A stretch of DNA of 64,000 bases from Eledone cirrhosa. Lineage: Eukaryota. Made by a program: the position numbers and the translations under genes. This document shows positions 13,730-45,680 of the stretch, one piece after another. The stretch's first letter is position 1. Each line of letters starts with the position of its first letter. The notes beneath the pieces are model-generated. The model saw only the letters and a list, made by a program, of their open reading frames with translations. It was not told the DNA's origin and did no database searches. The DNA is taken from positions 12,028,001 to 12,092,000 of the forward strand of contig OZ024759.1 of NCBI GenBank assembly GCA_964016885.1, written 5' to 3'.

Positions 13730-13949
13730 TCAGGGCGAAAGAAGCCCTTCATTAATGTAGCTGGACTGTCGTCCTTACGGAGGTAAGTGACTGTCTATTG
13801 AAAAAAATATATATAAACGAAATGAATGGAGGTAATTCGTTCGGAATGGATTTTCATAGGAAAATTGTTAGTGCGTTGGTCTCAAGACGATGTTTTTAAT
13901 GAATATAATTTCATAATTTAGAGATTTAAAAAAAAAGGATTCAGAGATC

Positions 13950-14175
13950 GAATCCCTCATCGTCACAATACCACCAATGCACTGATAATTTTCTTGTAAA
14001 AATATATCTAATCCGACTCCCGAATCACCTCCATTCGATTCGTTTATATTTTTTTTTAAACAAAGAATGTGAAAAGTACCCATAAGTATAAGTATTCTAT
14101 TCACTAGAATTGCGCCCTTCGAGGTGACCTGCGAGCTGCGTCTCGGACTCCCAGTCTGTGTGACTGACGTTCGAT
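13950..14175 (+). repeat. Dispersed direct repeat, diverged copy at 20530-20735
   Basis: Shared blocks in the same order: cacaaYaccaccaatgc, aagtaSccataagta, tagaattgcgSccttcgMggtgRc and ctgcgtctcggactYccagt. Confidence 0.75.
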
Positions 14176-15028
14176 TCGTGGTGGCGTGCGATTGTTAAGT
14201 GGACCTGGGACTGTCCAGACAGTCCCTTTTGTTGTCAACAGTGAGTCGAAAAAAATGAATACTTAGAATCAAGGGGAGATAATTCCCATTTTTTAAAGCA
14301 AAGTTAACTTCAAGGAGGTCTGGGACTGTCTGGACGACCCCCAATTACATCTAAGGATGTCCCATACGATAACTAGATCGACTTCCGTTTCTTTGAAAGA
14401 GAACCATTTTGGATATTACTTTCATGTGAGGAGGTATGTAATGTTTTCTTTGCTCTATACTAGGACTATCTAAGAAACTATACCTTCTCTCTATACACGT
14501 ACATTCTATTAGATATACACTTTATGTCAATAACACTCACATTTTGGATATTGTGTTCATGTGGCTTTCTGGCACCTAATATATTTCTATTTCCCTTCAT
14601 GATATCCTCGTATTTTGTAATACGATAAGTAGATTGATATAGCTTTAACTTTTAGCCTACAACCATTTATATTCTTTCTAAAACCTACAACCTTGAAGGT
14701 GACTTACATTCTTGGAAGACAGTTTGATTAGAACCTTGGATACTTCTTACTACATTCTTGACTGACTTAGATTCGAACCTTTGATACTTACTTATATATT
14801 CTTAGTTTCTTTCGTTAGAAACTTAGTTTCCCTCCAACAATATTATTTCTAGTTCCCTTCATGATATCCTCGTGTTTTGTTGTAAATTCGTTTTGGAGAC
14901 TTATTCCTGACCTGTTGGTTGCTATATTCTGGTTATTAATATTAACCAGAATCTTTTAAGATCTGTCGTCTTTGGTCAGGGTGAATATTACACCCGTCTC
15001 GTTTTGGCCATAAAACTTAGGTTTTATA

Positions 15029-16833
15029 CCCATTTTTTAAAAATAGATATCATGATCGTGTTAACTAGATCGATATCACTTTAACCGACGTAACATAGAA
15101 CCATTTACATTCTTAGTTTATTTCGTTAGTTACCTCCCTTGATGTAGGAAAAGGTTTTCTTGTTTCCTCTTTTTAAATGTATATATAATAAAAAACAAAC
15201 TTGGAAGAATTTATAAAGTTTAATATTCTTTTTATTGATAACATATGTAAATGTCTTTTATTTCTTTTTGCAGATGTCCAGCCTTCAAGGTCATATGCTG
15301 TGTTGCCGTAACAATACATATATACGAATCGTGCTCAGTTTATTTTGATAAAAATGAATGACAAAGACACTAAGAATGTTTAAACAGCCTCATCAAGGTT
15401 TCGACCGAAAATGGTTGTCCAATAAACAATGTAGACAGTATCACCAATGGTTCCAATCTAAGGAAAGAGAATAGAAAATATCAATAATGTGAAAAGGAAA
15501 GAAAATTAGAGAAAGAACCATCAAGGGTTCGAATGTAGCAGTCGTCTAAAATAGTAAGTAACATAAAGGGTAAAAGTAAGTATCAATAAAAGTCAACAAT
15601 GTAAAAAGTGTTATTAAGGGTTCGAATCCAACAGTCGTCAAAGAATGTAGTAACCATCAAGGGTTCTAAGTATCAAGAACCTTCAAGTATGTAAAGAAAG
15701 TATTGAAGGTTCGAATCCAACTGTCTTCCAAGAACCTTGAAGTATCGAAGGTTCGAATCTAAGTCAGTCAAGAATGTAGTAAGAAGTATCTAACTGTCTT
15801 CTTAGATACTTCTTACTACTTTCTTAGAACCCTTGAAGGTTATTTACATTCTTGGAAGACAGTAGGATTCGAACCTTAGATACTTCTTACTACATTCTTG
15901 ACTTACTTTGATTCGAACCTTTGATACTTTCTTTACATTCTTGATACTTAGAACCCTTGATGGTTACTACATTCTTGGAAGACAGTTAGATTCGAACCTT
16001 CAATACTTTCTTTACATATTTAAAGGTTCTTGATACTTGGAACCCACGATGGTTACTTACATTCTTGGAAGACAGTTAGATTCGAACCTTAGATACTTCT
16101 TACTACATTCTTGACTTACTTAGATTCGAACCTTTGATACTTCGAGGTTCTTGGAAGACAGTTGGATTCGAACCTTCAATACTTTCTTTACATACTTGAA
16201 GTTTCTTGATACTTAGAACCCTTGATGGTTACTACATTCTTTGACGACTGTTGGATTCGAAGCCTTAATGACACTTTTAACATTGTTGACTTTTATTGAT
16301 AGATACTTTTCATTCCCTTTCTGTTACTTACTACTTTTGGACGACTGTTACATTCGAACCCTTGGTGGTTCTTTCTCTAATATTTCTTTCCTTTTCACAT
16401 TATTGATATTTTCTATTCTTTCCTTAGATTGTAACCATTGGTGATACTGTCTACATTGTTTATTGGACAACTATTTTTGGTCGAAACCTTGATGAGGCTG
16501 TTTAAACATTCTTAGTGTCTTTGTCAAAATAAACTGAACACGATTCGTATATATGTATTGTTACGGCAACACAGCATATCACCTTGAAGGCTGGACATCT
16601 GTAAAAAAAAAATAAAAGACATTTACATACGTTATCAATAAAAAGAATATTAAACTTTATAAAATTCTTCCAAGTTTGTTTTTTATTATATATACATTTA
16701 AAAAGAGGAAACAAGAAAACCTTTTCCTACATCAAGGGAGGTAACTAACGAAAGAAACTAAGAATGTAAATGGTTCTGTTAAAGTGATATCGATCCAGTT
16801 AACACGGTCATGATATCTAAAAAAAAAAATGGG
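15029..16833. repeat. 1.8-kb imperfect palindrome (fold-back family member 1)
   Basis: 15029-15793 is the reverse complement of about 16089-16833. The local axis is near 15797, and extra GTTCGAATC sub-repeats lie at 15820-16090. Confidence 0.93.
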
Positions 16834-17499
16834 CCGATTGTCTTGAATCTCCAAAGTATGTGAAGAGGGGACATCCTTTGGGGAAAGTAACTTAATAAAT
16901 TCGATTGATTTATATTAAAATCGAATAAAGCGTTTATATATTGAAAATGTTTTCGTTTCTCAGTATATGAAGCCTTATACTTGAGTCTTTGGGGCATGCA
17001 ATCAAGATTGCCCCGGATTCTCTGGTCTGTCGCGAAAAGCTTATCCCCTAAAGTGACTGAGAGTACAAGACTCCCCCCCCCCCCGAACGTAAGTCCATCA
17101 CAGGGTTAACCCCCCACTTATTGCTGGTGCTCTTGAGTCATACGTAAAACTAAAACAATTGTAAATTCATTTCATTTTTCGATCACTTTCTTCCGCTGTA
17201 TACTAATCATTGGTTAACTGTCTATCGGTGTTTGTAAAGATCGATATCGACTAACTTGTGGGTTTATTTCGCCATCATTAAGTCCCAGATTCGATCACAC
17301 CCCATGTGAAACTGGGTAAACAGAAACTGTGTGTCATCTGTAATTGACAATGGCCAGTCTTATAATACTGAATTTCCCTGGGAATTACGCATGTAATTAT
17401 AGATTAACTAGTGCTGTAGCATGGCCAGGCATCTTAGAAGGTGCTGTAGCATGCCCAAGGATCTTAGAGGGTGCTGCAGCATGGTCAGTATAATTGAAA

Positions 17500-17645
17500 C
17501 ATGCGCACTAGATTTCTAAATCTCGCGCTTGCGCATTCAAAACAAGAAAAAAAATGGCCGTCAGCTTGTAGAATTTTACAAGCTTTACAAAAACTCTTGC
17601 TAAATGGTTTAACAATGGACAATTGCTGCTTTCCGAAAGGTAACG
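17500..17645 (+). promoter_or_regulatory. Possible promoter / first-exon-like segment
   Basis: CpG-containing catgcgca and cgcgcttgcgca (NRF1-like), aaaatggccg (YY1-like) and a possible donor site aag|gtaacg in otherwise AT-rich unique DNA. Motif-only evidence. Confidence 0.2.
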
Positions 17646-18214
17646 TAGATTTCTATATTATGTTGAGGTTTGTAAATCTTTCCCTCTTAGTCTCTTTCGT
17701 ATGATATACTATTTACACCTTCTAGTTCTCTTGTTTACGTATTCTAACTCATTCCCAATTAACAATCTAACGTGGTCGTTTCGATTGTTGCCTACATCTT
17801 GCGATCTTTCCGAGTTACACACAATAAGTCCAGCTGTTCACCATCTATGTTTTAAACCCTTTTTCTCCCATTTGACTTTGTCGATGGGGGAATCTTATCT
17901 TCCGTCTTGTAATGTCGTAAATTTAGTTCTATACACCTAAGTTTTGTTTTCGCCTTTAATAGTCCAAGAACAGTGTACGTCTGTTTTTCTGGTGATCATG
18001 GTTGAAGTATTGATCAGTGTTAATAGATCGATATCGATTAACTTTCCCCACGTGAATTCTCAATCATTAGGTGAGAGAATGACATCTTGGGCAAGGGTCA
18101 TCATAAACTTTAGTTGACCCATGAGGGAAATTTAGTAGACAGCATCTATTCTGGAAGCCTGTACCTGTAATTGAGTCAGTCTTGTCACACACCGTGTGGA
18201 ACTTCAGTATTTCT

Positions 18215-18505
18215 TCGCATAGTGGTTACAGTGTTGGACTTACGATCATAATGTCATAAGGTCGATTCTTGATCGTGTTGTGTTCTTGAGCAAAACACTT
18301 CATTTCACGTGGCTCCAGTATACTTAGGTGAAAATGAGTACCAGTAGTATCATGGGGTGTAACTCTGTGATAGACTGGCGTTCTGTCCAGGTGAGGTTCC
18401 TGTATTTTCAGCCGACTAACTGATTCGGATAAACACCGGTCTAATGAGGCTCCGGATTTGAGACAGACTTTAATCTTGCAATCGACTGGCGTCCTATCCA
18501 GGGGA
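18215..18505 (+). mobile_element. Decayed tRNA-headed SINE
   Basis: gcatagtggttacag A-box-like, ggtcgattct B-box-like and tgtgttcttgagcaaaacacttcatttcac, shared with the SINE at 4921-5268. Confidence 0.65.
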
Positions 18506-19239
18506 AGTCTCTTACCATATTCCTAATGAAATACACAGACCACGTGATCCAATTCATGCTGAAAATAAACAATAAAATTCAACATGTTTCTTTTTTATTC
18601 ACAGAAAATATGTCGAGTGTATTTCTTTAAAACTCTTCCTAGTTGTTAATATTTCAGTGTATTTAAATGCTTCTTTCAAGATTGAGATCAAAGACCTTAA
18701 ATTGTTGATTCAATTCTTCAACAGTGCTAAACATTTTCTGAAACTGTTGTAAATTAATTTTGTATTCTGGAGAGGTTTTCTCGGGTGTTTTAACTATTCC
18801 AGTTATTCAATCGCCACTCCCACACACATATGTTACGTAAGTCCGTAATTATGATTGTACCCTGAGATGATAGATATTGATACGATTGCAATATGCCAAT
18901 AAAGTTTATATATATGCTGCAATTGACTTCGATCCTGCTTATATATATATGAGCGGTCACCCCACCGAACTTGCCTCTAAATGGGACAGACTCGTCTAAT
19001 CCATTCTAGCGTGGAAGATAGACATTAAACGTTGATGATGATATATAGGCATAATTATGTCCTCAGGTTCATTCACCTTCGATGGACATAGCCTTGGTGT
19101 TGATGTCCGTGTCCTTTGTTCATTGGGAATATTTACCCTCAATCCCCTCTCTCCTTCTCCAAAGCCTCCCTCATCCTGCGAACTGCAGCCTTCTTCTCTC
19201 GTCCTGTCATTCCAATGATTGTGAGCATCCTCCATACTG

Positions 19240-19530
19240 ATTAAGCCGATGATTCCCTGCAGCCCACCTCGACTGGAAATAGCCATACCTACGAACCTTT
19301 CTACTGCACAACTTCTTACTGTCCAGCTTCATGTTTAATCTTCCACACGTTAGTACAGTCTATCAAATCCACTGGTCACCTTTGCCAGTCTGTTGCGGAT
19401 TTCCCTCTCAATCTTGGCATGTGATGTGAAGATGCTGCCCAGGCAGCTGATATGATGGACTGTTTAGTTCAGTCTCGCCAATGGTGATATGGGTGTAGGC
19501 TGGTGGAATACCTCCATCTTTAAGTTTACT
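19240..19530 (-). pseudogene. Highly decayed RTE-like LINE RT C-terminal fragment
   Basis: The minus strand reads CLGSIFTSHAKIEREIRNRLAK, resembling the YLGS...IdxEixxRlaKA segment of RTE ORFs. Confidence 0.55.
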
Positions 19531-19554
19531 TACAGTCTAGAGAGCCGGGCCTGC

Positions 19555-19990
19555 CTTTTAACGTGATATACTGTTACATCTAAGGTTGTGTTTGTCCTTT
19601 AAACGTCCTTTATTTACAGTATATTGTGGTAGCTCTCCCTCCATAAGAACCACAGTTAAACGTAATATAAGTTTGTGTCTGTCTTGTAACGTCCCTGTTA
19701 TACAGTATACTGTGGTAGCTGTCCCCCCACACGGCAGCTGTAAGGTTGTGTTTGTCTTCCAGCATATTGTGGTAGCTGTCCCTCCTTACCGTCCACAGTT
19801 ACATCTAAGGATGGGTCTGTCTTTTAACGTCACTGATATACAGTATTCTGTCCTTCCACGCGGCCTACAGTTGCATCTAACGTCCCCTTTATAGTCTATT
19901 ATGGTAGCTGTACCTCCATACGGCCTACAATTACATGTAAGGATGTGTCCCTGATATACAGTCCCTCCTTACCGTTTACATCTAAGGAAG
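19555..19990. repeat. Degenerate tandem repeat, about 60-85-bp units
   Basis: Recurring tattgtggtagctgtccctcc and cagttacatctaagg...tgtc...taacgtc. Confidence 0.75.
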
Positions 19991-20764
19991 CTTATAAAAG
20001 GTTGACCTGTATTTTAACATCACAAGAACTGGGGTCATGTGTCCTTAAACCTGGAATACATCAAGGTACGTATTAGTCACATTTGTATCGATTGTAATTC
20101 AGGTATTAATATATTTTTCATTTGTAAATTGTTGATGCATTGCTGGTGATATGTGTGTGTTGTTACGGGGTGCACTTATGGTTGTCAATGTCAGTCTATA
20201 CTTCCTTTGGTGACTGTACAGGCAGTAGATATTTCAGTGGAAGTGTCTTTCCCACCTCAGTCTCTTTCCATCTCGAAGGCTCAATGTCCTGTAATATTTT
20301 GTGGCCAACGCATGTACGCCAAAAGAGCGGTTAAAAGACATGTCTAACCTATATAATCTTCTGTGGCTATCGCTTGACTGTAAACAAAGATTTAGAGACA
20401 TGTCTAATTTGCATCTCCATCATAAGGTCTTGCAGTCATCAAAGGATCCTCAATTGTAGAACACGGTCACCATCGAACTTCGATAAACCTCCACAATTAA
20501 ACCCCCTAAACACTCCGTTGGCAGACATTGAAAACCCCATCTTCACAACACCACCAATGCGTTAATAATTGTCTTATGAAAAGAATATTTGTTCCCTTTG
20601 CATATACTATTTTTTTTTTATCAAAATATTTCCCAAGTAGCCATAAGTACCATTAATTTACTCAGTAGAATTGCGGCCTTCGCGGTGGCATGTGAACTGC
20701 GTCTCGGACTTCCAGTATAGGTGGCTGGCGTTTCTTTTCGAAATGTTATTAATATGTAAATGAA

Positions 20765-21529
20765 CCTTTGAAGTTTCTATATATATAAGGAGAGCTGGAT
20801 GATCATCAACGAGGAAGAGAAAGGGTTCGAGTCAGATCCAGGGAACAGGGCCCTCAGCTATTTCCTCTTCATATTCTCGGGCCCTGTTCCCTGGATCTGA
20901 CTCGAACCCCCTCTCTTCCTCCCTGTGATCTCGTTGATGATCATCCAGCTCTCCTTACACCTAGACCTGTCAACCGCTCTCTCCACACTTCTGATCTTCT
21001 CTATCAGAGCTGACGATGCTTCCTCTTCTTCTCTTTCCTCGGCACCAGGGTCTCACTTGCATTGGTGAAGTACCGGTACCTCCCCGTCACACTCTCCTTA
21101 GTCCCTCCAATCTCTCTCTCCTCTGAGCACTGAACCTGTTCCTCACTTCTACTGTGAACCTCTCCTGTAGCTTATCATCTTCCTTGAAACATACATATGT
21201 CTGTATCATTTCATTTCATCATCATTTCATTTTACGTCCGCTTTTTACCTGCTTGCAAGGGTGGGACGGGAACTGATTCTGGCTTGATTTCTACAGCTGG
21301 ATGCCCTTCCTAACACCAACCTCATTTACAGTGAGTGCTGGGTGCTTTTTTGCCGTGGCACCTCCACGACCACTTTACAGTGGAATGATAGGGATCCCAG
21401 TCCCTATAATCTCATTTCTACAGCTGAGTAAACTGGAGCAATGTGAAATAAAGTGTCTTGCTCAAGGAAACAACACATCACTCGGTCTGAGAATTGGGTG
21501 ATGTGTTGTTTCCTTGAGCAAGACACTTT
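20765..21529 (-). mobile_element. Composite repeat, copy 2: fold-back RTE fragment plus SINE, ending in a second hairpin
   Basis: Near-identical to 4478-5209; 21450-21483 is inverted at 21497-21529. Confidence 0.85.
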
Positions 21530-21939
21530 GTATATGTATATATACACATATATAATTATTCATAAACTTATGTATATATATACACACACCCACACATATG
21601 TGTACATATTTTTATCTCCATAATAATTGTTCTGTATATATGTACAAAATACTTGTAGATTCTAAATTAATTTAAATATCGAAACGGAATGTGAGATAAC
21701 ACATGAAATATATTTTGAGACGTGTTACCTCCTTTTCCGTTTCTATATTTTTTTTTAAATGAATAAAATTTTACCTATAAGTATACTAATTTTGTTATAC
21801 TTTGGGAGGGTCATGTTGTCAATAAGAAACACACGCACCAGTTGATTTCACTCCAATTTATTATAAATTAAATTTATAAATTTAGGATTTTATAAATTTC
21901 TGGTTGGCTGGTTGGTTGGTTCCACAACCGGACGGTTGT

Positions 21940-22500
21940 TCATATATTGTCAAAGTTCTTTCGCCACAAATTCTGTGACCTTTTCAGTGATTGGGGATTC
22001 TTTTCTTTGTTTTTGTGCCTCTCCTTTGTTCTGTCCTACGCCATCTTGTTTTTGTGTGTGTTGTGTACTTAGTTTGCGCATGTGTTACATCCGGGTGTCT
22101 GTGTGTGTTTTTATTTGTTTATTTAAATGCTACTGGTTGGTTGTTTGTTCTATGTGTGTGTGTGTGTTTTCATTTTGTCCTTAACTGTAAGTTGTGATGT
22201 TGCTATTCCATTCATGTTTTCTATTTAATTTTGGTTGGAGTTCATTTATGTTTATTGCTTCTGTGATTTGACTAAACATTGCGTCTTTTCTGTGTGTAGA
22301 TTCTATTTTTATTTCTATGTTCTCTAATTTGCCCTTATGTTCTATTTTAGCATGTTGGTGGAGTATTGATGATTCTTTTTTATCTTGAAGCTCTCGCCAG
22401 TGTTCATTTAACCGTTCTCCTATACTACGAGCTGTCTCACCTATGTACACTATATTCTTATCTTTACATTGTCCTTCAGTACATCTTATGATATATCTAC
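21940..22500 (-). pseudogene. Penelope-like element 3' remnant: GIY-YIG endonuclease C-terminus plus degenerate hammerhead-like motif
   Basis: The minus strand reads YIIRCTEGQCKDKNIVYIGETARSIGERLNEH...ILHQH...ITEAININELQPKLNRKHE, the CxxxxC..YIGET..R..EH / EA..I....P.LN pattern of PLE GIY-YIG domains. Confidence 0.85.
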
Positions 22501-22519
22501 ATTTCTAGAAATGTAGTAT

Positions 22520-23045
22520 ATAGCATAAGATTACTAAAACTCGAGAACCACCCAACCGAGTTTTATTCAAACTTTACACATGTAGTACTTATGGTCCCGT
22601 GAGTGGTGTTTTGAGCAAAATAAATTTCAAATTTTCAATGCATTAGGCGATTTAGCGATCTCTCTCTATAATTCTTAGTCTTTCTCTTTTTAGATAGATA
22701 CATACATATAACGTCACGCCCTTATAATATCTGTCTGTATGCCTAACTGTCTGCAAATAGTCTTCCTGTTTTCCTTCGATTGCAACGTTTTTCGAAATAT
22801 TTACTTCTGCGTTCACAGATTGATTTTTTTAGTTTCAGAAGATCCTGTTAAGGGTAAAAGCAGCGATTCTTTGCTTAAAAATTAATCTGTTATTTTAATA
22901 TATATAATTATATATTCGTGTACAGATATTTTTGCATATACAATAGCAAAATATAAACAAACATATTTATTTCGCGAGGCTCGATAAGGATAAATATATA
23001 AGAACCCTAGAGCAAATCCCGAACAACGCCGGGCCATTCTGCTAG
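22520..23045 (+). mobile_element. Non-autonomous Helitron-like element, 3' end at 23045
   Basis: Hairpin cccgaacaacgccggg (23018-23033), 8 nt, then CTAG (23042-23045) followed by T, the canonical Helitron 3' terminus. An internal CTGT-rich stretch is present; the 5' end is not defined. Confidence 0.6.
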
Positions 23046-24057
23046 TATCTAATAAAAAACAAACTTGGAAGAATTCTATAAAGTTTAATATTCTTTTTAT
23101 TGATAACGTATGTAAATGACTTTTATTACTTTTAGATATCCAGCCTTCAAGCCGTAAAGAATGGCGAACTCTCTGTTAAGAAAGCTTACATATATACGAA
23201 TCGTGTTCAGTTTATTTTGACAAAAATGAATAAAGTTTACATATTATATACGAATTGTGTTCAGTTTATTTTGACAAAGACACTAAGAATGTTTAAACAG
23301 CCTCATCAAGGTTTCAAATCCAACAGTCGCTCCAAAAATAGACAGTATCACCAATGGTTACAATCTAAGGAAAGAGAATAGAAAATATCAATAATGTGAA
23401 AAGGAAAGAAATATCAGAGAAAGAACCATCAAGGGTTCGAATGTAACAGTCGTCCAAAAGTAGTAAGTAACAGAAAGAGAATGAAAAGTATCAATAAAAA
23501 TCAATAATGTAAAAAGTATCATTAAGGGTTCGAATCCAATAGTCGTCCAAGAATGTAACCATCTAAGTATCAAGAACCTTCAAGTATGTAAAGAAAGTAT
23601 TGAAGGTTCGAATCCAACTGTCTTCCAAGAACCTTGAAGTATCAAAGGTTCGAATCTAAGTGAGTCAAGAATGTAGTAAGAAGTAGCTAAGGTTCTAATC
23701 TAACTGTCTTCCAAGAATGTAAGTAACTTTCAAGGGTTCTAAGAAGACAGTTGGAATAGAACCTTAGTTACTTCTTACTACATTCGAACTTAACTCGATT
23801 TTTGCTCTAAAATTTTAATGTATTTATCTCCCTTTTTTTAAACTCTTCTTTTTTTTTAAGTGACTTCCGGTTCTTTGGAAGAGAACCATTTTGGATATTA
23901 CTTTCATGTAAAGAGGTATGTAATGTTTTCTTTGCTACTAGGACTAATAGATACACTTTATGTCAATAACGGATATAGTTTTCTATACACATACATTCTC
24001 TTAGATACACACTTTTCAGAAAACACGTTTCATATAGAATCTTTCTCGACATTTTAT

Positions 24058-24087
24058 AGTGTTTACCTCTGATCAGAGGTAAACACT
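24058..24087. repeat. Perfect 30-bp palindrome agtgtttacctctga|tcagaggtaaacact
   Basis: Seen directly in the left-arm spacer. Confidence 0.9.
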
Positions 24088-24231
24088 GTATTTAAGGTCG
24101 AGTGATTAGCGGCCTTTAGACTCACCTGATCAATGAAACTTTTGATAATACTAGAAATAAAACCTTTTTGTGCAGCCGACCATGTTATTCTTCAATCTTA
24201 CACACACATACACACACACATATATATATAT

Positions 24232-24368
24232 AAGGGTAAAGACCCTCACGATTGACCATGGGATTTTCATCTAAAAAGTTCCCCTCCGAGACCGGGCAAG
24301 GTTGTTTGTGGAAGACCAGCAGTCTTCCCTCCCCACGCCACTGATGTTGTCCAACTCATTTCTACAGA
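24232..24368 (-). mobile_element. SINE body fragment inserted in the left arm only
   Basis: gaccatgggatt...ccgggcaaggttgtttgtggaagaccagcagtc...ctcatttctacag; the last motif is shared with the SINE at 4921-5268. No mirror copy on the right. Confidence 0.45.
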
Positions 24369-25016
24369 CTGATCTAGAGAAACGTGAGACAACGCTAGTA
24401 AATCTTTATTTTATATTGAAGAGTTTCACTTAAACATTTTCCGTTTATTTCCCTCCATAATGTCAGCAATAATTAACCAATAGTTTTGTTTAGCTGCTGC
24501 CCCACCTCCACGTTGTGTTGTATTTCCAATGTAATGTCACCTCACACATTTCTCGGTCATATCAAATAGAATTTAGCGTATTTCTATATTATTTAAGTTG
24601 GCAAATAAGATAACATCTCTGTCTGACGACCGATCCAGACGTTTACTATTGTCTATGATCCAGAAACCTTTGGTAATGGAGTAGTTTGTGTTGTTCGCTT
24701 TCTAATATATATATAAACTCGTCGCTATTTATATACACACACAGACATATATTTATATATATGTATATATAGTTATGTAATAAACAACATAAAGCAATTA
24801 TTCCATTTACCAGTGGTTTCTTAAAAGCAAAAAATGTTGCTTTCAATCACCAGAATGAAAAAATCCTGGTGTCTTTATTGATATTGGATTCTAAAAACAA
24901 AAATGCAATCTATAACTGTTAAGCTCTGTTACCTACATAGAGCACTCTTTTTACCTGGACTTGTCCGACGGAATTACTTCATTTATATGTATATATATAC
25001 ACACACAGAGACAGAC

Positions 25017-25047
<31 letters not shown>

Positions 25048-26111
25048 GAGACAGACATATATATATATATATATACACACACACAGACATATATATAAAC
25101 ACACATATATATATATACACATATATATATATATACACACACACACGCACACTTATGTATATATATATATACAGTTGGTAAATAATATACTTGTTCTTCT
25201 CTTCATCATATCCTCGTGTTGGAGGACTTTCTCTTTGTCAACATGTCCCAGTCAGTCGTTGGAGTGTCATACTAGATGTGCAGTCGTGCTTTACAATCAT
25301 GAGTTCGATTCTCGTAGCAAGCTTCTGAAGGACTTGTGCTTGATTCTGATAGTTACTTTACCATGGCAGAATCTCCTTTGGCCCTGCTAGATTCTGGTTA
25401 TTAATATTAACCAGAATCTTTTGAGAACTGTTGTCTTTGGTCAGAGTGAATATTTCACCCGTCTACGTAACACACACACACTTAATATGCATTTTTAGTT
25501 TAATATTATTTTTATTGATAATGTATGTAAATGACTTTCATTTCTTTTTACAGATGTCCAGCCATCAAGGCCATATGCTGTGTTGTTTGCCGTAACAAGT
25601 GGGAATGTCGTACTTTCTTTTAATAAATATACGAGAAAACTAATCGCTATGCACACACACACACACACACACATCTTTTAATAAAGAAAGTTTACATCAT
25701 ATATACGAATTGTACTCAGTTTATTTTGAGAAAAATGAATAAAGAAAGTTTACATATTATATACGAATTGTGTTCACTTAATGTTGACAAAAATGAATAA
25801 AGAAATCAAGAGTCTAGAAGAAACCGAGTTCGCCGTGATGTAAAGAACGTAAGTGTTTATGAAGTTTCTAAATAAAGAAACTAAGAGTAAGATAAAGTTT
25901 CTTGTAAGAAACTGAGAATGAAGAAGTTTCTAAATAAAGAAACTAAGAGGTAGATAAAGTTTCTTGAAAGAAACTGAGATTTATGAAGTTTCTAAATAAA
26001 GAAACTAAGAATGTTTTTGAAATTATCGAAAAAAAAATCTATGAAATAAGACCACCCTCTTTTTAATTTTTTTTTATTAAAGGGAGGTAACTCTGTAATA
26101 TTTTGAAACGA

Positions 26112-26505
26112 ATTACCTCCCTTTGAAACACCTTCGTCACCGTCGTTACCACCGTCGGCACCTTCGTAACCGTCGTCACCATTACCGCCGCCACCTGGTG
26201 GCGGAGGAAAAGATACCGACGACGACGGGGGTGCACCGTCGTCTTCGTCGGTACTTTTACCTCCGCCACCAGGTGGCGGAGGTAAAGACACCGACGAAGA
26301 CGAAGGTGCACCGTCGTCTTCGTCGGTGTCTTTACCGCCGCCACCTGGTGGCGGAGGTAAAAGTACCGACGAAGACGACGGTGCACCCCCGTCGTCGTCG
26401 GTATCTTTTCCTCCGCCACCAGGTGGCGGCGGTAATGGTGACGACGGTTACGAAGGTGCCGACGGTGGTAACGACGGTGACGAAGGTGTTTCAAAGGGAG
26501 GTAAT
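26112..26505. repeat. GC-rich palindrome core: 75-bp period made of alternating inverted 37.5-bp half-units
   Basis: Axes at 26196, 26271, 26346 and 26421 (ccgccaccWggtggcgg) and at 26233.5, 26308.5 and 26383.5 (GTGCAC-centred). Confidence 0.95.
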
Positions 26506-27528
26506 TCGTTTCAAAATATTACAGAGTTACCTCCCTTTAATAAAAAAAAATTAAAAAGAGGGGGTCTTATTTCATAGATTTTTTTTTCGATAATTTCAAA
26601 AACATTCTTAGTTTCTTTATTTAGAAACTTCATAAATCTCAGTTTCTTTCAAGAAACTTTATCTACCTCTTAGTTTCTTTATTTAGAAACTTCTTCATTC
26701 TCAGTTTCTTACAAGAAACTTTATCTTACTCTTAGTTTCTTTATTTAGAAACTTCATATACACTTACGTTCTTTACATCACGGCGAACTCAGTTTCTTGT
26801 AGACTCTTGATTTCTTTATTCATTTTTGTCAACATAAAGTGAACACAATTCGTATATAATATGTAAACTTTCTTTATTCATTTTTCTCAAAATAAACTGA
26901 ATATAATTCGTATATATGATGTAAACTTTCTTTATTAAAAGATGCGTGTGTGTGTGTGTGTGTGTGTATAGCGATTAGTTTTCTCGTATATTTATTAAAA
27001 GAAAGTACGACATTCCCACTTGTTACGGCAAACAACACAGCATATGGCCTTGATGGCTGGACATCTGTAAAAAGAAATGAGAGTCATTTACATACATTAT
27101 CAATAAAAATAATATTAAACTAAAAATGCATATTAAGTGTGTGTGTGTTACGTAGACGGGTGAAATATTCACTCTGACCAAAGACGACAGTTCTCAAAAG
27201 ATTCTGGTTAATATTAATAACCAGAATCTAGCAGGGCCAAAGGAGATTCTGCCATGGTAAAGTAACTATCAGAATCAAGCACAAGTCCTCCAGAAGCTTG
27301 CTACGAGAATCGAACTCATGATTGTAAAGCATGACTGCACATCTAGTATGACACTCCAACGACTGACTGGGACATGTTGACAAAGAGAAAGTCCTCCAAC
27401 ACGAGGATATGATGAAGAGAAGAAGAAGTATATTATTTACCAACTGTATATATATATATATATATATATATGTATGAGTGTGTGTGAATATATATATGTC
27501 TGTGTGTGTGTGTGTACATGTGTGTGTG

Positions 27529-27575
<47 letters not shown>

Positions 27576-27824
27576 ATGTATATATATATATATATATATA
27601 TAGCGATGAGTTTTCTCGTATATAATATATCTATAAATGTCTGTGTGTGTATATATATAGCGATGAGTTTTCTCGTATATAATATATCTATAAATGTCTG
27701 TGTGTATATATATAGCGATGAGTTTTCTCGTATATATGTCTGTGTGTGTGTATATATATTATATACATATATGTCGGGGGGGGGGGGGGGTATAGCGATG
27801 AGTTTTCTCGTATGTATATATATA

Positions 27825-27894
27825 ACCCATGCTAGTCCGTCTAACCCATGCTAGCATGGAAGAACAGACGTAAAACGATGATGATGATGATGAT
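27825..27894 (+). mobile_element. Short RTE-type 3' end with (GAT)n tail, right arm only
   Basis: ccgtctaacccatgctagcatggaagaacagacgtaaaa(cgatgat)n matches the reverse complement of 44347-44403 and the 3' end at 54935-54980. Confidence 0.75.
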
Positions 27895-29900
27895 ATATAT
27901 ATATATATTAGAAAGTGAACAACACAAAATATAACTTCTCCATTACCAAAGGTTTCTGGATCATAGACAATAATAGTAAACGTCTGGATCGGTCGTCAGA
28001 CAGAGATGTTATCTTATTTGCCAACTTAAATAATATAGAAATACGCTAAATTCTATTTGATATGACCGAGAAATATGTGAGGTGACATTACATTGGAAAT
28101 ACAACACGTGGAGGTGGGGCAGCAGCTAAACACAACGTGGAGGTGGGGCAGCAGCTAAACAAAACTATTGGTTAATTATTGCTGACATTATGAGTACTTG
28201 ATACTTGGGATAGTAAAGTGTGACTCTGCCAGTATATTCATATATACTTATCTATATTGAAACACACACATATATATATATATATACATGCATGCACACT
28301 TCCATATATGAATGTGTAAACATATATAGTGATTGCTTAATCTTTGCAAATGATTGCCGTTTCCCTATGCAACCCCAAGTATTGATGTACCCAGATTTAG
28401 AGAGCAGTAGACGACCACACACTTCAAAACTCCAGCTCCCTATGTTCTTATTGATAATAAGAGAAATAGAGAAGATAATAAAAATGTAGCTGTATATAGA
28501 GAAGGTATGTGTCTAGTGAAGAATGTGTGTCTCTAAAGAGGAAAGGTGTAAATCGAATCATGTCAATAAAGAAGATATATGTAAAAAGAGGTTTAGTTTC
28601 TACGAATAAAATGTACATATTGATATGGTGTGTAGAGTTATATTGTATACAAAGAAAACATTACATACCTCTTTAAATGAACGTAATATCCAAGATGATC
28701 TTTTTCAAAGAACCGGAAGTCAATCGAAAATAAAGCAACAGAAGAGTTCCATAAAGGGGAAATAACTAATAAAAAACGATTGCTCGAGCTATCTAGGAGG
28801 CAGGCCAGCATATAACCATCCTGCACATAATCCTGGCTGCCGAGGCCGCGTGCCCTCGCAACGATTCGATCTTCCGACACATAGAATATGTCACGCCGAG
28901 AGTTCGAATCCAACAGTCTTCCAAGAATGTAAGTAATCATCGTGGGTTCTAAGTATCAAGAATGTAAAGAAAGTATTTAAGGTTCGAATCTAAGTAAGTC
29001 AAGATAGAATGTAGTAAGAAGTATCTAAGTTTCTTTTCCAACTGTCTTCTTAGAACCCTTGAAAGTTACTTACATTCTTGGAAGACAGTTAGATTCTAAC
29101 CCTTGATACTTCTTACTACATTCTTGACTTACTTAGATACTTTCTTTACATTCTTGGAAGACAGTTAGATTAGAACCTTAGCTACTTCTTACTACATTCT
29201 TGACTTACTTAGATACTTTCTTTACATTCTTGGAAGACAGTTAGATTAGAACCTTAGCTACTTCTTACTACATTCTTGACTTACTTAGATTCGAACCTTT
29301 GATACTTCAAGGTTCTTGGAAGACAGTTGGATTCGAACCTTCAATACTTTCTTTACATACTTGAAGGTTCTTGATACTTAGATGGTTACATTTTCGGACG
29401 ACTGTTGGATTCAAACCCTTAATGACACTTTTTACATTATTGATTTTTATTGATAGATACTTTTCATTCCCTTTCTGTTACTTACTACTTTTGGACGACT
29501 GTTACATTCGAACCCTTGATGGTTCTTTCTCTAATATTTCTTTCCTTTTCACATTATTGATATTTTCTATTCTCTTTCCTTAGATTGTAACCATTGGTGA
29601 TACTGTCTATTTTTGGAGCGACTGTTGGATTTGAAACCTTGATGAGGCTGTTTAAACATTCTTAGTGTCTTTGTCAAAATAAACTGAACACAATTCGTAT
29701 ATAATATGTAAACTTTATTCATTTTTGTCAAAATAAACTGAACAGGATTCGTATATATGTAAGCTTTCTTAACAGAGAGTTCGCCATTTTTTACGGCTTG
29801 AAGCCGTATCTAAAGATAAATAAAAGTCATTTACATACGTTATCAATAAAAAGAATATTAAACTTTATAAAATTCTTCCAAGTTTGTTTTTTATTAGATA

Positions 29901-30317
29901 CTAGCAGAATGGCCCGGCGTTGCTCGGGATTTTCTCTAGGGTTCTTATATATTTATCCTTATCGAGCCTCGCGAAATAAATATGTTTGTTTATATTTTGC
30001 TATTGTATATGCAAAAATATCTGTACACGAATATATAATTATATATATTAAAATAACAGATTAATGTTTAAGCAAAGAATCGCTGCTTTCACCCTTAACG
30101 GGATCTTCTGAAACTAAAAAAAATCAATCTGTGAACGCAGATGTAAATATTTCGAAAAACGTTAAAACCGAAGGAAAACGGGAAGACTATATGCAGACAG
30201 TCAGGCATTCAGACAGATATTATAAAGGCGCAACGTTATATCTATGTATCTATCTAAAAAGAGAAAGACTAAGAAATATAAAGAGAGATCGCTAAATCGC
30301 CTAATGCATTGAAAATT
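29901..30317 (-). mobile_element. Mirror copy of the Helitron-like element, 3' CTAG at 29901-29904
   Basis: a-ctag-cagaatgg-cccggcgttgctcggg; reverse complement of 22630-23045; truncated where the CR1-like RT fragment begins. Confidence 0.6.
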
Positions 30318-30323
30318 GTAATA

Positions 30324-31040
30324 AAATTGCCAAAGTCATAGAGTCCTGTGTCAGAAAAACACTCTGGAACTCTCACAGCCTTATCCAGCCCTCGCAATTT
30401 GGATTTCTCCCCAACTCCAGCTGCTGTGATCAACTCATCGAGTTTCTTGAAGACATTACCCAAATCACTGATGGCGGCTCATGGGTGGATGTTTATCTTG
30501 ACTTTGCTAAAGCTTTTAACTCTGTGCCACACAAAATACTCATGGCAAAACTCTCTGCAATGGGTGTGAGAGATGATCTTTTTAACTGGTTGAAGTCCTT
30601 CATTCTCAGTCGAAAAGAGGTAGTTCGGGCCGAGGACAGCATTCCTCACTATATGAGATGACATCTGGTGTAGCAAAGGGATCTGTTCATGGTCCCCTTT
30701 TGTTTGTGGCATATATTAATGACATAGATGCCAACATAAAGAATGCCACAGTACTGAAATATGCAGACGACGTCAAGCTGTACCTTGAGATAAAAAAGAC
30801 AGATACTGAACACTATAGATCTTGCTTGCAGCAATCAGACCTGGACACAATGCAGCAATGGACCATGGACTGGCAACTCAAGCTAGCTGTGAACAAGTGT
30901 ACTACCATGCATTCTGGGAGGAAAAACCCAGCTTTCACACACTCCCTCCACAACACCAATCTCAAGAAGTCTTCTTGTAAACATGACCTGGACATTACTG
31001 TCAGCAGCAATTTGTGTTGGACAAAGCACATCTCTACACC
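30324..31040 (+). pseudogene. CR1/L2-like LINE reverse transcriptase fragment (disrupted)
   Basis: QFGF...CCDQLIEF, YLDFAKAFNSVPH, TSGVAKGSVHGPLLFVAYINDI, KYADDVKLY and WQLKLAVNKC motifs across frameshifts. Confidence 0.9.
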
Positions 31041-31904
31041 TGATATTCCCCCTGCATACACACACGTGTGTGTGTGTCTATGTGTATATAAAGACTCATA
31101 CACTGCTCCCTTTCCTGACAATTGTACATTATTCTATGTACCATACCTGCACCTTTGATACCGAGGAAGTTGACCATTCTATTATTATTTTCTATTTCAA
31201 CATTAAGACTGTAATTATTTTAAAAAAACAGTTATTATTTTCTTTCCTATTTAGAATTATTATTATGGTTAACTAACATGAAAAGAGCATCATTGTGGTA
31301 CAAACCACCGCCAAGTTCAGGTAACCTTCTGTTAATTAGGTTAAGGATAAAAATTCTACCTAGCCGAGTCTGTGGATCTCATGGTGATGTCAAAATTCCC
31401 AGGTCGGTCGGCTCTGTTGAAATCAATTATCATCTTCCTAGCCGTAAAGATGTTAACTTCACTCGAAAGATCAATATATTTTGTCTATATTAGGGCTCTA
31501 TTGAGTAGTGTTGGTGAAATTGGAGAGTAGTAGTTACTTATGTCCATTTGTATAAATTTAATTCTGTTTTTATTTGGAAGTTCAATAAACCAATCAATAA
31601 CGTCATTGGTTCCATTCCATAATTTAAGTTGGGATCATAGCTTCAACGTTGGTATGATTCTGTCTAGAATGTTCTTATAATTCCTAAATCTTAGATGGTG
31701 CTATAAGTCTACCCAGTAGCTCAGATTCAAAGTTATTTTTATGGTCTTCCATATTTATTCTCAGTGTTTTAGTTATGAAAGGTTCAGTACGGTGTTCTAT
31801 CCCAAGTTTGGTGACAATTTTATTTGCTTCTTTATTTATAAATTCAATGTTTTATGGCAGTTTTTATTCCTAAGTTCTCTGATTATTAGTTTATTATTGG
31901 ACTT

Positions 31905-34150
31905 ACGTATCAGATATGAGCGGCACCAAGTCTCAAGTTGACTACATTATGGTCAACAAAAACTGGAAAAACTCTGTACACAACTGCGAAGCATACAACT
32001 TCAGCAGCATGGGATCGGATCACCGTATCACAACAGCAGAGCTTAAATTAAGCTTGAGAACCAGTAAAGCGTTATCTACCAGAGTCAACTATGATTGAGC
32101 TTCACTAAGGGATCCTGATTTGAGCGATCTTTATACTGTTACCTTTAGAAACAAGTATGCAAGCTTGTGCACAGAAAACGAATCCATCACAGACATACAC
32201 TCACCTCATTCAAGCAAATGACGGAGCAGCCACAGAGCTTCTTCCATGAAAAAAGAAGCACAAAAAGAAACAAACTTCGGGTGATCCGCGAGTCATCGAT
32301 GCAAGAGAGAAAATTCAGAAGGCTTCTAGGGCATACACAGAGAATCCAACAGAGCGTAATTGCCAGAAACGTCAACGATGCAAGAATACACTGCAGAAGG
32401 CATATGACACTATTTCCGAGGAAGAACTTGATAAATGGATAGCTGAAGTAGAATCTGCAGATGTGAAATCGAAGCATGGAGAAAGCTGGAAGCTAATAAA
32501 CGAGATCACTGGGAGGAAATCTGTCAAACAAGCCATAACAAAAGCAAACTCTAAGGAAGATCACATCAAGAAGTGGTACTTACACTTCAAGGAATTACTT
32601 GGAAAAGAGCCTAAAGTTGTGGGTGAGATCAGCGAAATTGCACCAGTGCTGAAAAATCTGGGAATCTCAGACACAATCTTCACACCTGCTGAATACTCAA
32701 TAGCCAAGAAGTCTCTGAAGGAGGGGAAAGCCTTTAGATCTGATGGCATCGGCCCGGAAGTTCTCAAGCATTGCAACCTGGATGACATCATGCTCGGTTA
32801 TGTCAAAAAGCTGATGGTCGGCGAGAAGCCTGACCAATGGTCAGAAAGCAATATGAAGCCTCTACCAAAGTCAGGTGATCTCGGCTATACAGACAACTAC
32901 AGGGGAATAGCTTTGTCCTCCATTGCAGCCAAATTGGCAAATCGAATGCTTCTCAACAAGAATCCACCAAAAATCAATCCACAACTACGTCTGAACCAGA
33001 ATGGCTTCCAACCAGGAAGGTCGACTGTTGCTTATATTCTTGCATTGAGGAGATTAATCGAGGGTTTCCAATCACACAACCTAAAAGCTGTCTTGACATT
33101 TGTAGACTTTCAAAAGGCATTCGACAGCATCCACCGAGGGCGAATGCTCCAGATACTGAGAGTATATGATGTGCCTGAAAAGATAGTTCAAGCTATAGGT
33201 CTGATGTACGAGGGTACTCGAGCTCACATATTGACACAAGACAGAAACACTGATTACTTTGAGATTCTCACAGGTGTTCACCAAGGTGACACGATTGCAC
33301 CTTTCCTATTTGCAATTGTCCTCAATTATGCAATGAAACAGGCCATTCATGGGAAGGAAGAAGAGATTGGTTTCAAATTGGATTGAAGGAGAAGTTGTCA
33401 CTGAAACAGACTTTGCCGATGACAATGCCTTGATCAAAGAGGAAATCAGCCAAGCTCAAAGAATTCCTCACACGTGTCGAGGTTGAATCAGGCAAAATAG
33501 GACTGCATCTCAATGCAAAGAAGACCGAAATCATGCACTACAATCAGGTTGATCCAGCTCCAGTTCTTGCTAAGGACGGTACAACAGTCAAAACAGTTGA
33601 GAACTTTAAGTATCTTGGTGCATGGATGCGCAGCTCACGCAAGGAATTTGAAGTTAGAAAAGCACGAGCATGGGCGGCATGTCACAAGCTACTGAAGGTG
33701 TGGAAGTCCAACCTATACCGCAAAATCAAGGAGCGTCTCTTCCTAGCAACTGTTGAATCCGTCCTGCTTTACGGCAGTGAAACGTGGACTATTGACAAAG
33801 TGCTATGCAAGAGACTTGACGGATGTTGAGTATGGCTCCCAACATTTCTTGGAAACAGAAGCTGACAAATACAGAACTCTACAGATCACTACCACCAGTC
33901 TCAAATAAAGTTGTCTGCGGACGAATGAAACTGTCTGGACACTGCATACGTCATCCAGAAGAGACAACATCACAACTTGTACTCTAGAAACCGGCGGTCA
34001 GACAAAGAAGCGTGGGAAGACAGGCCGTCTCATTCATTGATACCCTGTTGAGAGATTGATACCCATTGATAACATCGAGAAACTGAGAAATGTCATGCTC
34101 GACTGGGACGATTGGAGAAAGCGTGCTGAATCTGCGAGTGTAAACTCGGC
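31905..34150 (+). pseudogene. 5'-truncated RTE-like LINE (APE C-terminus plus RT), disrupted
   Basis: QVDYIMVN...SDH (APE), NYRGIAL, QNGF, FVDFQKAFDSIHR, GVHQGDTIAPFLF, FADD (near 33412), FKYLG and ESVLLYGSETW. Confidence 0.92.
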
Positions 34151-34436: not shown

Positions 34437-37400
34437 TTCACATCAAAGTGATAAGCCTGCCACAGTGTAGTATTAGGGTTCACATCAAAGTGATAAGCCC
34501 GCCACAGTGTAGTGTTAGGGTTCACATCAAAGTGATAAGCCCGTCACAGTGTAGTGTTAGGGTTGACAGCAAAGTGATAAGCCCGCCACAGTGTAGTGTT
34601 AGGGTTCACATCAAAGTGATAAGCCCGCCACAGTGTAGTGTTAGGGTTCACATCAAAGTGATAAGCCCGTCACAGTCTAGTGTTAGGGTTCACATCAAAG
34701 TGATAAGCCCACCACAGTGTAGTGTTAGGGTTCACATCAAAGTGATAAGCCCACCACAGTGTAGTGTTAGGGTTCACATCAATGTGATAAGCCCACCATA
34801 GTGTAGTGTTAGGGTTCACATCAAAGTGATAAGCCCACCACAGTGTAGTGTTAGGGTTCACATGACAGTGATAAGCCCACCACAGTGTAGTGTTAGGGTT
34901 CACATCAAAGTGATAAGCCCGCCACAGTGTAGTGTTAGGGTTCACATCAAAGTGATAAGCCCACCACAGTGTAGTGTTAGGGTTCACATGACAGTGATAA
35001 GCCCACCACAGTGTAGTGTTAGGGTTCACATCAAAGTGATAAGCCCACCACAGTGTAGTGTTAGGGTTCACATGACAGTGATAAGCCCACCACAGTGTAG
35101 TGTTAGGATTCACATCAAAGTGATAAGCCCACCACAGTGTAGTGTTAGGGTTCACATCAAAGTGATAAGCCCGCCACAGTGTAGTGTTAGGGTTCACATG
35201 ACAGTGATAAGCCCACCACAGTGTAGTGTTAGGGTTCACATGACAGTGATAAGCCCACCACAGTGTAGTGTTAGGGTTCACATCAAAGTGATAAGCCCAC
35301 CACAGTGTAGTGTTAGGGTTCACATGACAGTGATAAGCCCACCACAGTGTAGTGTTAGGGTTCACATCAAAGTGATAAGCCCACCACAGTGTAGTGTTAG
35401 GGTTCACATCAAAGTGATAAGCCCACCACAGTGTAGTGTTAGGATTCACATCAAAGTGATAAGCCCACCACAGTGTAGTGTTAGGGTTCACATGACAGTG
35501 ATAAGCCCACCACAGTGTAGTGTTAGGGTTCACATGACAGTGATAAGCCCACCACAGTGTAGTGTTAGGGTTCACATGACAGTGATAAGCCCACCACAGT
35601 GTAGTGTTAGGGTTCACATGACAGTGATAAGCCCACCACAGTGTAGTGTTAGGGTTCACATCAAAGTGATAAGCCCACCACAGTGTAGTGTTAGGGTTCA
35701 CATGACAGTGATAAGCCCACCACAGTGTAGTGTTAGGGTTCACATGACAGTGATAAGCCCACCACAGTGTAGTGTTAGGGTTCACATGACAGTGATAAGC
35801 CCACCACAGTGTAGTGTTAGGGTTCACATCAAAGTGATAAGCCCACCACAGTGTAGTGTTAGGGTTCACATGACAGTGATAAGCCCACCACAGTGTAGTG
35901 TTAGGGTTCACATCAAAGTGATAAGCCCACCACAGTGTAGTGTTAGGGTTCACATGACAGTGATAAGCCCACCACAGTGTAGTGTTAGGGTTCACATGAC
36001 AGTGATAAGCCCACCACAGTGTAGTGTTAGGGTTCACATCAAAGTGATAAGCCCACCACAGTGTAGTGTTAGGGTTCACATGACAGTGATAAGCCCACCA
36101 CAGTGTAGTGTTAGGGTTCACATGACAGTGATAAGCCCACCACAGTGTAGTGTTAGGGTTCACATGACAGTGATAAGCCCACCACAGTGTAGTGTTAGGG
36201 TTCACATGACAGTGATAAGCCCACCACAGTGTAGTGTTAGGGTTCACATCAAAGTGATAAGCCCACCACAGTGTAGTGTTAGGGTTCACATGACAGTGAT
36301 AAGCCCACCACAGTGTAGAGGGTTCACATGACAGTGATAAGCCCACCACAGTGTAGTGTTAGGGTTCACATGACAGTGATAAGCCCACCAGAGTGTAGTG
36401 TTAGGGTTCACATGACAGTGATAAGCCCACCACAGTGTAGTGTTAGGGTTCACATGACAGTGATAAGCCCACCACAGTGTAGTGTTAGGGTTCACATCAA
36501 AGTGATAAGCCCACCACAGTGTAGTGTTAGGGTTCACATGACAGTGATAAGCCCACCACAGTGTAGTGTTAGGGTTCACATCAAAGTGATATGCCCACCA
36601 CAGTGTAGTGTTAGGGTTCACATGACAGTGATAAGCCCACCACAGTGTAGTGTTAGGGTTCACATCAAAGTGATAAGCCCACCACAGTGTAGTGTTAGGG
36701 TTCACATGACAGTGATAAGCCCACCACAGTGTAGTGTTAGGGTTCACATCAAAGTGATAAGCCCACCACAGTGTAGTGTTAGGGTTCACATGACAGTGAT
36801 AAGCCCGCCACAGTGTAGTGTTAGGGTTCACATCAAAGTGATAAGCCCACCACAGTGTAGTGTTAGGGTTCACATGACAGTGATAAGCCCACCACAGTGT
36901 AGTGTTAGGGTTCACATGACAGTGATAAGCCCGCCACAGTGTAGTGTTAGGGTTCACATGACAGTGATAAGCCCACCACAGTGTAGTGTTAGGGTTCACA
37001 TCAAAGTGATAAGCCCACCACAGTGTAGTGTTAGGGTTCACATCAAAGTGATAAGCCCGCCACAGTGTAGTGTTAGGGTTCACATCAAAGTGATAAGCCC
37101 GCCACAGTGTAGTGTTAGGGTTCACATCAAAGTGATAAGCCCACCACAGTGTAGTGTTAGGGTTCACATCAAAGTGATAAGCCCACCACAGTGTAGTGTT
37201 AGGATTCACATCAAAGTGATAAGCCCACCACAGTGTAGTGTTAGGGTTCACATGACAGTGATAAGCCCACCACAGTGTAGTGTTAGGGTTCACATGACAG
37301 TGATAAGCCCACCACAGTGTAGTGTTAGGATTCACATGACAGTGATAAGCCCACCACAGTGTAGTGTTAGGGTTCACATCAAAGTGATAAGCCCGCCACA

Positions 37401-43400: not shown

Positions 43401-43501
43401 GTAGTGTTAGGGTTCACATCAAAGTGATAAGCCCGCCACAGTGTAGTGTTAGGGTTCACATGACAGTGATAAGCCTGCCACAGTGTAGTGTTAGGGTTCA
43501 C
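34437..43501. repeat. 42-bp satellite, about 215 units, one TTAGGG per unit
   Basis: Unit gggttcacatcaaagtgataagcccaccacagtgtagtgtta, with atcaaa/atgaca and acc/gcc variants. Confidence 0.98.
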
Positions 43502-45462: not shown

Positions 45463-45680
45463 TTATTCGAAATGCTTTCCTCTAGCTCTCATTACTGCTT
45501 GAAGTCTTCTAGGAAAGTCTTTGATGGCTGCACGAACAGTTTCCATGGGTATTTTCTCCCATACTTTATTCAGTTTTGATTTTAGAGTTTCAATATTTTG
45601 GCTCGGAGTAGAGCAGGCTTCATTCTCAAGAATTGACCGTAAAGAAAAATCGAGAGAGTTGAGATCTGGCGATGTGGGAG
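45463..45680 (-). pseudogene. maT transposase C-terminal fragment fused to satellite, copy 1
   Basis: PTSPDLNSLDFSLRSILE...ARGKHFE, nearly identical to the end of 52958-53674. Confidence 0.9.

Follow-up and report, generated by a model that had tools for sequence, protein, structure and literature searches.

An alternating inverted array of 37-bp half-units at the axis of a foldback-like palindrome in Eledone cirrhosa

The window analysed here, a 64-kb stretch of Eledone cirrhosa DNA, contains a near-perfect palindrome of 2,275 bp (25172-27446) that lies between TA runs and carries a GC-rich core of alternating inverted half-units at its exact axis. We favour, with moderate confidence, the explanation that this core was built by host replication errors, as the apex at which a modular, non-coding foldback repeat grows. 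The core seems to preserve, in spatial order, a record of three or more fold-backs in succession, and would thus be a datable example from nature of repeated template switching, which published models omit. Moreover, the palindrome seemingly persists in several copies, whereas palindromes of kilobase size without a spacer would be expected to disappear. The literature covered, outside which most subscription papers fall, yielded no account of the element or of a core of this kind.

The original prediction placed seven symmetry axes in the core at a spacing of 37.5 bp, and all seven lie at the positions it gave (26196, 26233.5, 26271, 26308.5, 26346, 26383.5 and 26421); no further axis scoring 8 or more was found in 26000-26620. 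The five inner axes have arm scores of 31-248, compared with a best score of 10 across 300 dinucleotide shuffles of the core; the outermost two score only 8, a value equalled in 17 of the 300 shuffles. The surrounding island (26112-26505) is 59% GC and holds 50 CpG dinucleotides (observed/expected 1.44) between flanks that are both 28% GC, in agreement with its description as a GC- and CpG-rich island in AT-rich DNA. At the four CCWGG axes the central base W reads T, A, T, A in order, again as described. Because each inversion complements the loop base, this alternation is forced by symmetry and is therefore no evidence of the flip/flop with which it had been equated, whose isomers are indistinguishable at one locus or in contigs. 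The hairpins expected on each side of the core are both present, with 12-bp arms and centres at 26101.5 and 26515.5, and since they are mirror copies of each other they represent one event, not two. The first arm of the left hairpin is a family module that also occurs in a sister palindrome, from which the second arm is absent.

When folded as DNA, the core reaches a z-score of -46, with none of 100 shuffles as stable, and takes the shape of one long hairpin (-221 kcal/mol). Two branched forms had folding energies of -191 and -156 kcal/mol, and the single hairpin is more stable than the two forms tested by 31 and 65 kcal/mol. As, in addition, only the main axis is homogenised, the branched cruciforms that had been proposed for the core are disfavoured. 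The earlier view of the core as a concatemer of one half-unit, x-x'-x-x', stands as regards the alternating inverted array; the number of half-units is eight and not six, because both outer flanks (26159-26195 and 26422-26458) are diverged half-units with 9-11 differences of 37 bases. Read as codons, the half-unit specifies Gly and Asp, and 5 of 8 variable columns fall at third positions. A Gly/Pro-rich exon was rejected, there being no Pfam match and 0 of 158 candidates at E 1e-8; the single protein match, P0001 (36%), is an unrelated repeat protein without a Pfam family.

Table 1 Positions of the core, the palindrome arms, the sister palindrome and the CTCF consensus matches in the window.
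Feature	Position	Strand	Remarks
Left outer arm	22630..24715	+	segments with unmatched DNA between
Left inner arm	25172..26308	+	starts CAGTTG following TA run
Tandem repeats of left inner arm	25680-25805	+	58-bp unit
Tandem repeats of left inner arm	25859-26010	+	31/62-bp units
Left flanking hairpin	26079..26124	.	12-bp arms, 22-nt loop
Alternating inverted core	26159..26458	.	eight 37-bp half-units, h0' W h1|h2' W h3|h4' W h5|h6' W h7
Apex pair h3|h4' around main axis 26308.5	26272..26345	.	holds the core's only two mismatches
h7 grading into 3-/21-periodic GGY/GAY low-complexity tract	26422..26490	+	mirror 26127-26195
Right flanking hairpin	26493..26538	.	mirror of left hairpin
Right inner arm	26309..27446	-	ends CAACTG ahead of TA run
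Right outer arm segments	27898..30317	-	mirror of left outer arm; abuts LINE reverse-transcriptase fragment
Sister palindrome	15029..16833	.	same modules in other order, arms 92% alike, without GC-rich core
CTCF consensus match	26188..26201	-	axis 26196, exact
CTCF consensus match	26266..26279	+	axis 26271, exact
CTCF consensus match	26338..26351	-	axis 26346, exact
CTCF consensus match	26416..26429	+	axis 26421, exact

The half-units are graded in divergence. Neighbouring half-units differ at 11, 6, 4 and 2 of 37 bases from the outside to the centre, the mirror pairs h0 and h7, h1 and h6, and h2 and h5 are identical, and the two apex mismatches are at 26304/26313 and 26280/26337. UPGMA returns the ladder (h0,(h1,(h2,(h3,h4)))) following the physical order of the half-units; few sites underlie this ladder, with bootstrap values of 87%, 62% and 72% at its three nodes and the complete ladder recovered in 37% of 2000 replicates. 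Differences that rise outward from 2 to 4, 6 and 11, combined with identical mirror pairs, are consistent with stepwise growth at the apex by template switching, with recopying across the axis. The GGY/GAY tract into which h7 grades is the likely source material of the half-unit.

The inner palindrome is nested in a 7.7-kb mirror that runs from 22630 to 30317. The right inner arm differs from the left by 14 substitutions and two small indels. Between mirror positions, the core has 2 differences in 197 positions (both at the apex), the adjoining DNA 0 in 253, and the inner arm farther out 1.8%, followed by 1.5%, 2.2% and 4.6% and one segment of 16%. By segment, the outer arm differs from its mirror by 4.6% at 22630-23045, 2.2% at 23046-23722, 16% at 23813-23934 and 1.5% at 24520-24715. 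Arm identity is unbroken for 421 bp beside the apex while two mismatches remain at the tip, and none of the 12 inner-arm substitutions beyond the apex is within 450 bp of the axis (P 0.003, for a gap chosen post hoc; Kolmogorov-Smirnov p 0.045). Substitutions between the arms are rich in transitions (8/12, 13/15 and 11/19), and the arms contain ordinary host repeats and microsatellites. No convincing target-site duplication was found at five candidate ends, where three boundaries showed nothing, the outer one 5-6 bp A/T words and the inner one TA runs, and Rfam gave no match in 13-34 kb.

Several further sequences lie in or beside the arms. A GIY-YIG fragment (22184-22504, minus strand, E 1.9e-5, together with 21870-22180) is located just outside the left end of the palindrome and is probably the 3' end of a Penelope-like element; a Penelope-made inversion was rejected, as the fragment has no mirror copy and gave no match when used as a query. 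LINE reverse-transcriptase fragments occupy 30308-31155, where the right arm is truncated, and 32253-33383, the latter with named relatives in amphioxus, two fishes and a priapulid (5 named among the 120 matches listed), a bilaterian-type set that points to an animal host. Both outer arms contain a short hairpin followed by CTAG (23018-23045 and its mirror at about 29900-29930), presumably similar to a Helitron 3' end. The word GGTTCGAATCC, which we take to be a Pol III B-box-like motif, occurs 7 times exactly and 25 times within one mismatch in the window (1.5 expected) and clusters in the family's arms at 14769-16263, 23527-23657 and 28901-29417; no tRNA gene was found. The word GGAGGTAA occurs 12 times against 2.1 expected, all within 13779-26534 and about 8 of them independent of mirroring, at sites in, among others, the sister palindrome, the core and its flanking hairpins; it is a possible protein-binding or microhomology word.

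The palindrome has relatives within the window and in sequencing reads. The sister palindrome combines the same modules without the core, so the core is dispensable for palindrome formation in this family. Fold-backs occur at several scales in the family (15029-16833, 23669-23785, 24058-24087, 25389-25419 and 26079-26124), and further family modules lie at 14376-14999. Four of seven runs under one species label were compared with 25180-26350, the left arm and centre, at 85% likeness; X1 and X2 derive from one sample, possibly the source of the assembly. Both cover 30 of 30 bins of this stretch in short contigs, no listed piece of which spans it whole. Single arm records with 0-4 differences have depths of 73.9, 78.3 and 93.2, against 5.5 and 9.6 for diverged records that are about 400 bp long and carry 24 differences; although depth itself is no copy number, we infer that the arm is present in roughly ten copies. 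The palindrome element is probably multi-copy and may be mobile, and, judged by read depth, the core itself may be dispersed. One contig record spans 26199-26319 across three axes with 10 differences (about 90% identical), so a second, diverged core exists. As expected, the core sits at the exact axis of a long palindrome, here the 2.3-kb one, and the diverged variant keeps three axes; we found the unit neither as a single copy nor as plain direct repeats nor within an exon. All copies with a different number of half-units were looked for in contigs too short to span the core, and none was seen.

Both alleles of 26280 are present in contigs of X1 (121/253) and X2 (144/208). Relatives in the reads link the same modules in other orders, with joints 25621-25738, 25787-26068 and 26014-25858; none of the 12 joints listed changes strand, in contigs that cannot show molecule ends. 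In X4, from another sample, arm depth is about one tenth of that in X1 and depth is zero over 26060-26350, which includes the core and a flanking hairpin; this gap may reflect library type, hairpin drop-out or true absence. The RAD run X5 is without core coverage and carries no evidential weight, and no RNA run among those listed contains the sequence.

In the mechanism that we favour, fold-backs of a GC-rich GGY/GAY tract would have taken place at GTGCAC and at the CCWGG axis, which forms a 1-nt loop, and each later switch between CCWGG and GTGCAC seeds would have added one inverted pair (75 bp) centrally. This template-switch cycle would have run three times over at the apex, leaving the oldest half-units outermost and the youngest in the centre. 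The arms could have been kept or made identical across the main axis by hairpin-associated conversion; alternatively, the h3|h4 hairpin may have primed a recent fold-back that recopied one arm. In a variant of this scheme one arm already read h0' h1|h2' h3|h4', and a fold-back copy of the rest would preserve the two apex mismatches. Host replication and repair would suffice, and a dedicated nicking or resolving enzyme would be unnecessary. The proposal that the core seeded the surrounding palindrome can be kept in part: the innermost pair is a plausible fold-back seed and may well have done so, without a viral enzyme.

The individual steps have precedents. Short inverted repeats can be both generated and made perfect by template switching (PMC5453318); the four-point switch model of that paper leaves out successive rounds. 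Inverted triplications arise at short inverted repeats by ODIRA (PMC10766183, PMC4689423), fold-back priming leads to an asymmetric centre (PMC3907307), and conversion maintains inverted repeats in Caenorhabditis (PMC1803023). In yeast, palindromes with 2-4 nt loops are unstable (PMC4689423), from which it follows that a spacer-less 2.3-kb palindrome should be unstable as well. The passive model fails to explain the survival of such a palindrome.

An assembly artefact of fold-back chimeric reads is an extremely improbable source of the palindrome or of its core. Arms that are identical beside the axis would fit such reads, the best runs contain 0.41-0.47 of the sampled words, under half, and the assembly may itself derive from sample S1. 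However, the arms differ by transition-rich substitutions, X1 and X2 together cover all 30 bins, a diverged core exists, and the right-arm alleles, namely five substitutions (25432, 25780, 25817, 25825 and 25857) and the 26054 deletion, are found in short-read contigs, which argues against an artefact. An origin at the junction of a hairpin-ended replicon (a rolling-hairpin virus, a linear plasmid or an unknown mobile element) would place the nicking or resolving protein elsewhere and make the palindrome an integrated head-to-head dimer junction. This improbable reading would account for a core exactly on the axis, for tandem repeats that adjoin the tip, for tip mismatches that persist beside 421 bp of identity and for 26280 alleles near 1:1 in X1 (144/208 in X2), as if copies shared the asymmetry. 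Its coding prediction was examined in frames of at least 42 aa from 13.7-17 kb and 21.5-30.4 kb, of which 7 of 100 were dropped as low-complexity, leaving 93; three LINE frames added as positive controls all matched RVT_1. No Rep, helicase, capsid, polymerase, transposase or resolvase family was found in the 93 frames, whose only family matches are the GIY-YIG fragment and one sub-threshold DUF. In parvoviruses and densoviruses, terminal hairpins enclose a genome of 4-6 kb with rep (NS1) and cap genes, and neither gene was found in the 93 frames, nor was there a viral-contig match. Hairpin-telomere replicons of the protelomerase/ResT type combine a resolvase gene with a linear replicon and closed ends; no telomere resolvase family appeared in these frames, and chromosomal repeats lie on both sides of the element. 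Polintons (Mavericks) carry pPolB, integrase and capsid genes between long TIRs, none of which the frames contain. In the comparison suggested with parvovirus/densovirus, Polinton and linear-plasmid termini, the genes expected of parvoviruses, Polintons and hairpin-telomere replicons were thus not found in the frames covered. Exact patterns of the half-unit and junction had no match in viral contigs, metagenomes or prokaryote genomes, and blastn with the core found no phage match; its one match, to a haloarchaeal plasmid gene over 12% of the query, was rejected as low-complexity chance. With a coreless sister palindrome in addition, the proposed rolling-hairpin or parvovirus link is not supported, and the ordinary host repeats and microsatellites in the arms and the lack of a strand-changing joint among those listed also speak against a replicon. 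In AAV2 replication one read shows an extra hairpin arm, but the termini of AAV consist of A, B and C palindromes that are not homologous and show random flip/flop, not of one alternating unit (PMC11575299). A non-autonomous foldback transposon of Tc1/mariner type, inserted in TA runs and with the core as its middle domain, is in our view a quite improbable identity for the inner unit of 2,275 bp. The unit starts with CAGTTG at 25172 and ends with CAACTG at 27446, between TA runs, and these termini presumably resemble Tc1/mariner ends. Arm depth is high up to the start of the compared stretch, and internally repetitive arms with modular rearranged copies are typical of foldbacks (PMC4079207, PMC3573991). 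However, the mirror symmetry extends past the TA runs at like divergence (1.5% at 24520-24715 against 1.8%), so 25172 and 27446 need not be true ends; a TA duplication is indistinguishable inside a TA run, and the 93 frames contain no transposase.

A function of the core is compatible with template switching and can be weighed beside it. Read on the strand with the central A, all four CCWGG axes are exact matches to CCASYAGRKGGCRS, which is printed as the human CTCF consensus (PMC6746451), and no other site lies within one mismatch of this human consensus in the 64 kb (0.56 expected). W sets the direction of the motif, which is minus, plus, minus, plus. It is a real possibility, if an unlikely one, that the core has been retained as a putative CTCF-binding cassette and that the foldback spreads two-sided insulators; the four predicted sites would stand 75 bp apart, facing left, right, left and right, with an outer pair that diverges as at domain boundaries. 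A random fold-back in a shuffled GC tract yields the motif in 60 of 40000 trials (0.15%), or in 343 of 20000 (1.7%) when in frame with an A/T loop. Moreover, the 8 motif columns of the half-unit are invariant where 13 of its 37 columns vary, the first variable column directly adjoining the motif (P 0.019), and the outer arms carry the Pol III B-box-like words. CTCF-like motifs have been reported at domain boundaries in squid (PMC9023564) and at loop anchors in three cephalopods (PMC13652810). We rate function as unlikely because the four sites are copies of one event and the motif is nearly palindromic and was recognised post hoc; the last two points mean that the chance figure is understated. 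Local homogenisation also predicts invariance near the axis, the column invariance falls to P 0.11 among h1-h4 alone (without h0), the consensus is a human one, and PMC10658181 states that loop extrusion lacks direct evidence in invertebrates. It is rather improbable that the element is a mobile self-mirroring insulator whose apex adds alternately oriented CTCF motifs at 75 bp per template switch. Were this so, copying across the axis would keep the two sides equal, and, as the motif doubles as the seed for folding back, every fold-back would create another CTCF site. Together with the B-box arrays of the outer arms, copies would then plant two-sided chromatin boundaries across a cephalopod-like genome. 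If the motifs are bound, clusters of insulators would be both built and dispersed by the repeat, within a group for which domain boundaries based on CTCF are so far a proposal.

Elsewhere the window is rich in tandem and dispersed repeats. A 33-bp tandem array of about 209 copies, some of 36 bp, fills 6144-13155 and leaves about 2,390 codons open per strand in one frame each. Arrays of a 42-bp unit lie at 34437-43501, 45679-47052 and 49224-50975, with a block repeated three times between them (44452, 47997 and 51946) and an inverted copy, 77% alike, at 54165-54609. Two 730-bp duplicates (4478-5209 and 20765-21496) are 97% identical and include a hairpin whose 41-bp arms enclose a 29-nt loop. 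A 199-bp SINE-like unit in two tandem copies, which we take to be an octopus SINE, is located at 61783-62198.

The element shares features with several known systems. Like the AAV2 termini (PMC11575299), the core is a GC-rich hairpin with internal symmetry, a head-to-head junction and, as occasionally in AAV2, extra arms; unlike them, it is without rep or cap and is composed of 37-bp units, not a genome, with one homologous unit instead of A, B and C and a strict, symmetry-forced alternation instead of random flip/flop. As in the palindromes kept by conversion in Caenorhabditis (PMC1803023) and on mammalian sex chromosomes, the arms are far more alike than their age implies, but here they are without genes or a spacer and the core is seemingly growing. 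The foldbacks FB, Tetris and Galileo have long arms with internal tandem repeats and no coding capacity, modular rearranged relatives, and arms extended by recruiting neighbouring DNA (PMC4079207, PMC3573991). Correspondingly, the present element has long inverted non-coding arms with internal tandem repeats, and its copies vary in structure, as seen in the sister palindrome, the module joints and the variant core. In contrast to FB, Tetris and Galileo, no 7-10 bp target-site duplication was found and no transposase is linked to it, and the spacer is replaced by an alternating inverted array with a divergence ladder. Judged by these sequence features, the element may be described as a foldback-like repeat of modified design, possibly carrying an insulator cassette. 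Clusters of CTCF sites are borne by other repeats, among them rodent B2 SINEs and DXZ4. These share with the present element consensus CTCF sites carried by a repeat, whereas here each predicted site is a fold-back axis with its orientation set by the loop base. With ODIRA, the four-point switch and human fold-backs, the core shares inverted copies seeded at short inverted repeats, a direct-inverted-direct order and a retained junction asymmetry. ODIRA differs in its kilobase scale and in involving an origin (PMC10766183, PMC4689423), and human fold-backs differ in having spacers of 766 bp or more (PMC3907307), whereas this core consists of 37-bp units that apparently stem from no fewer than three rounds, one after another, at a single apex, and that have become fixed within a family of repeats.
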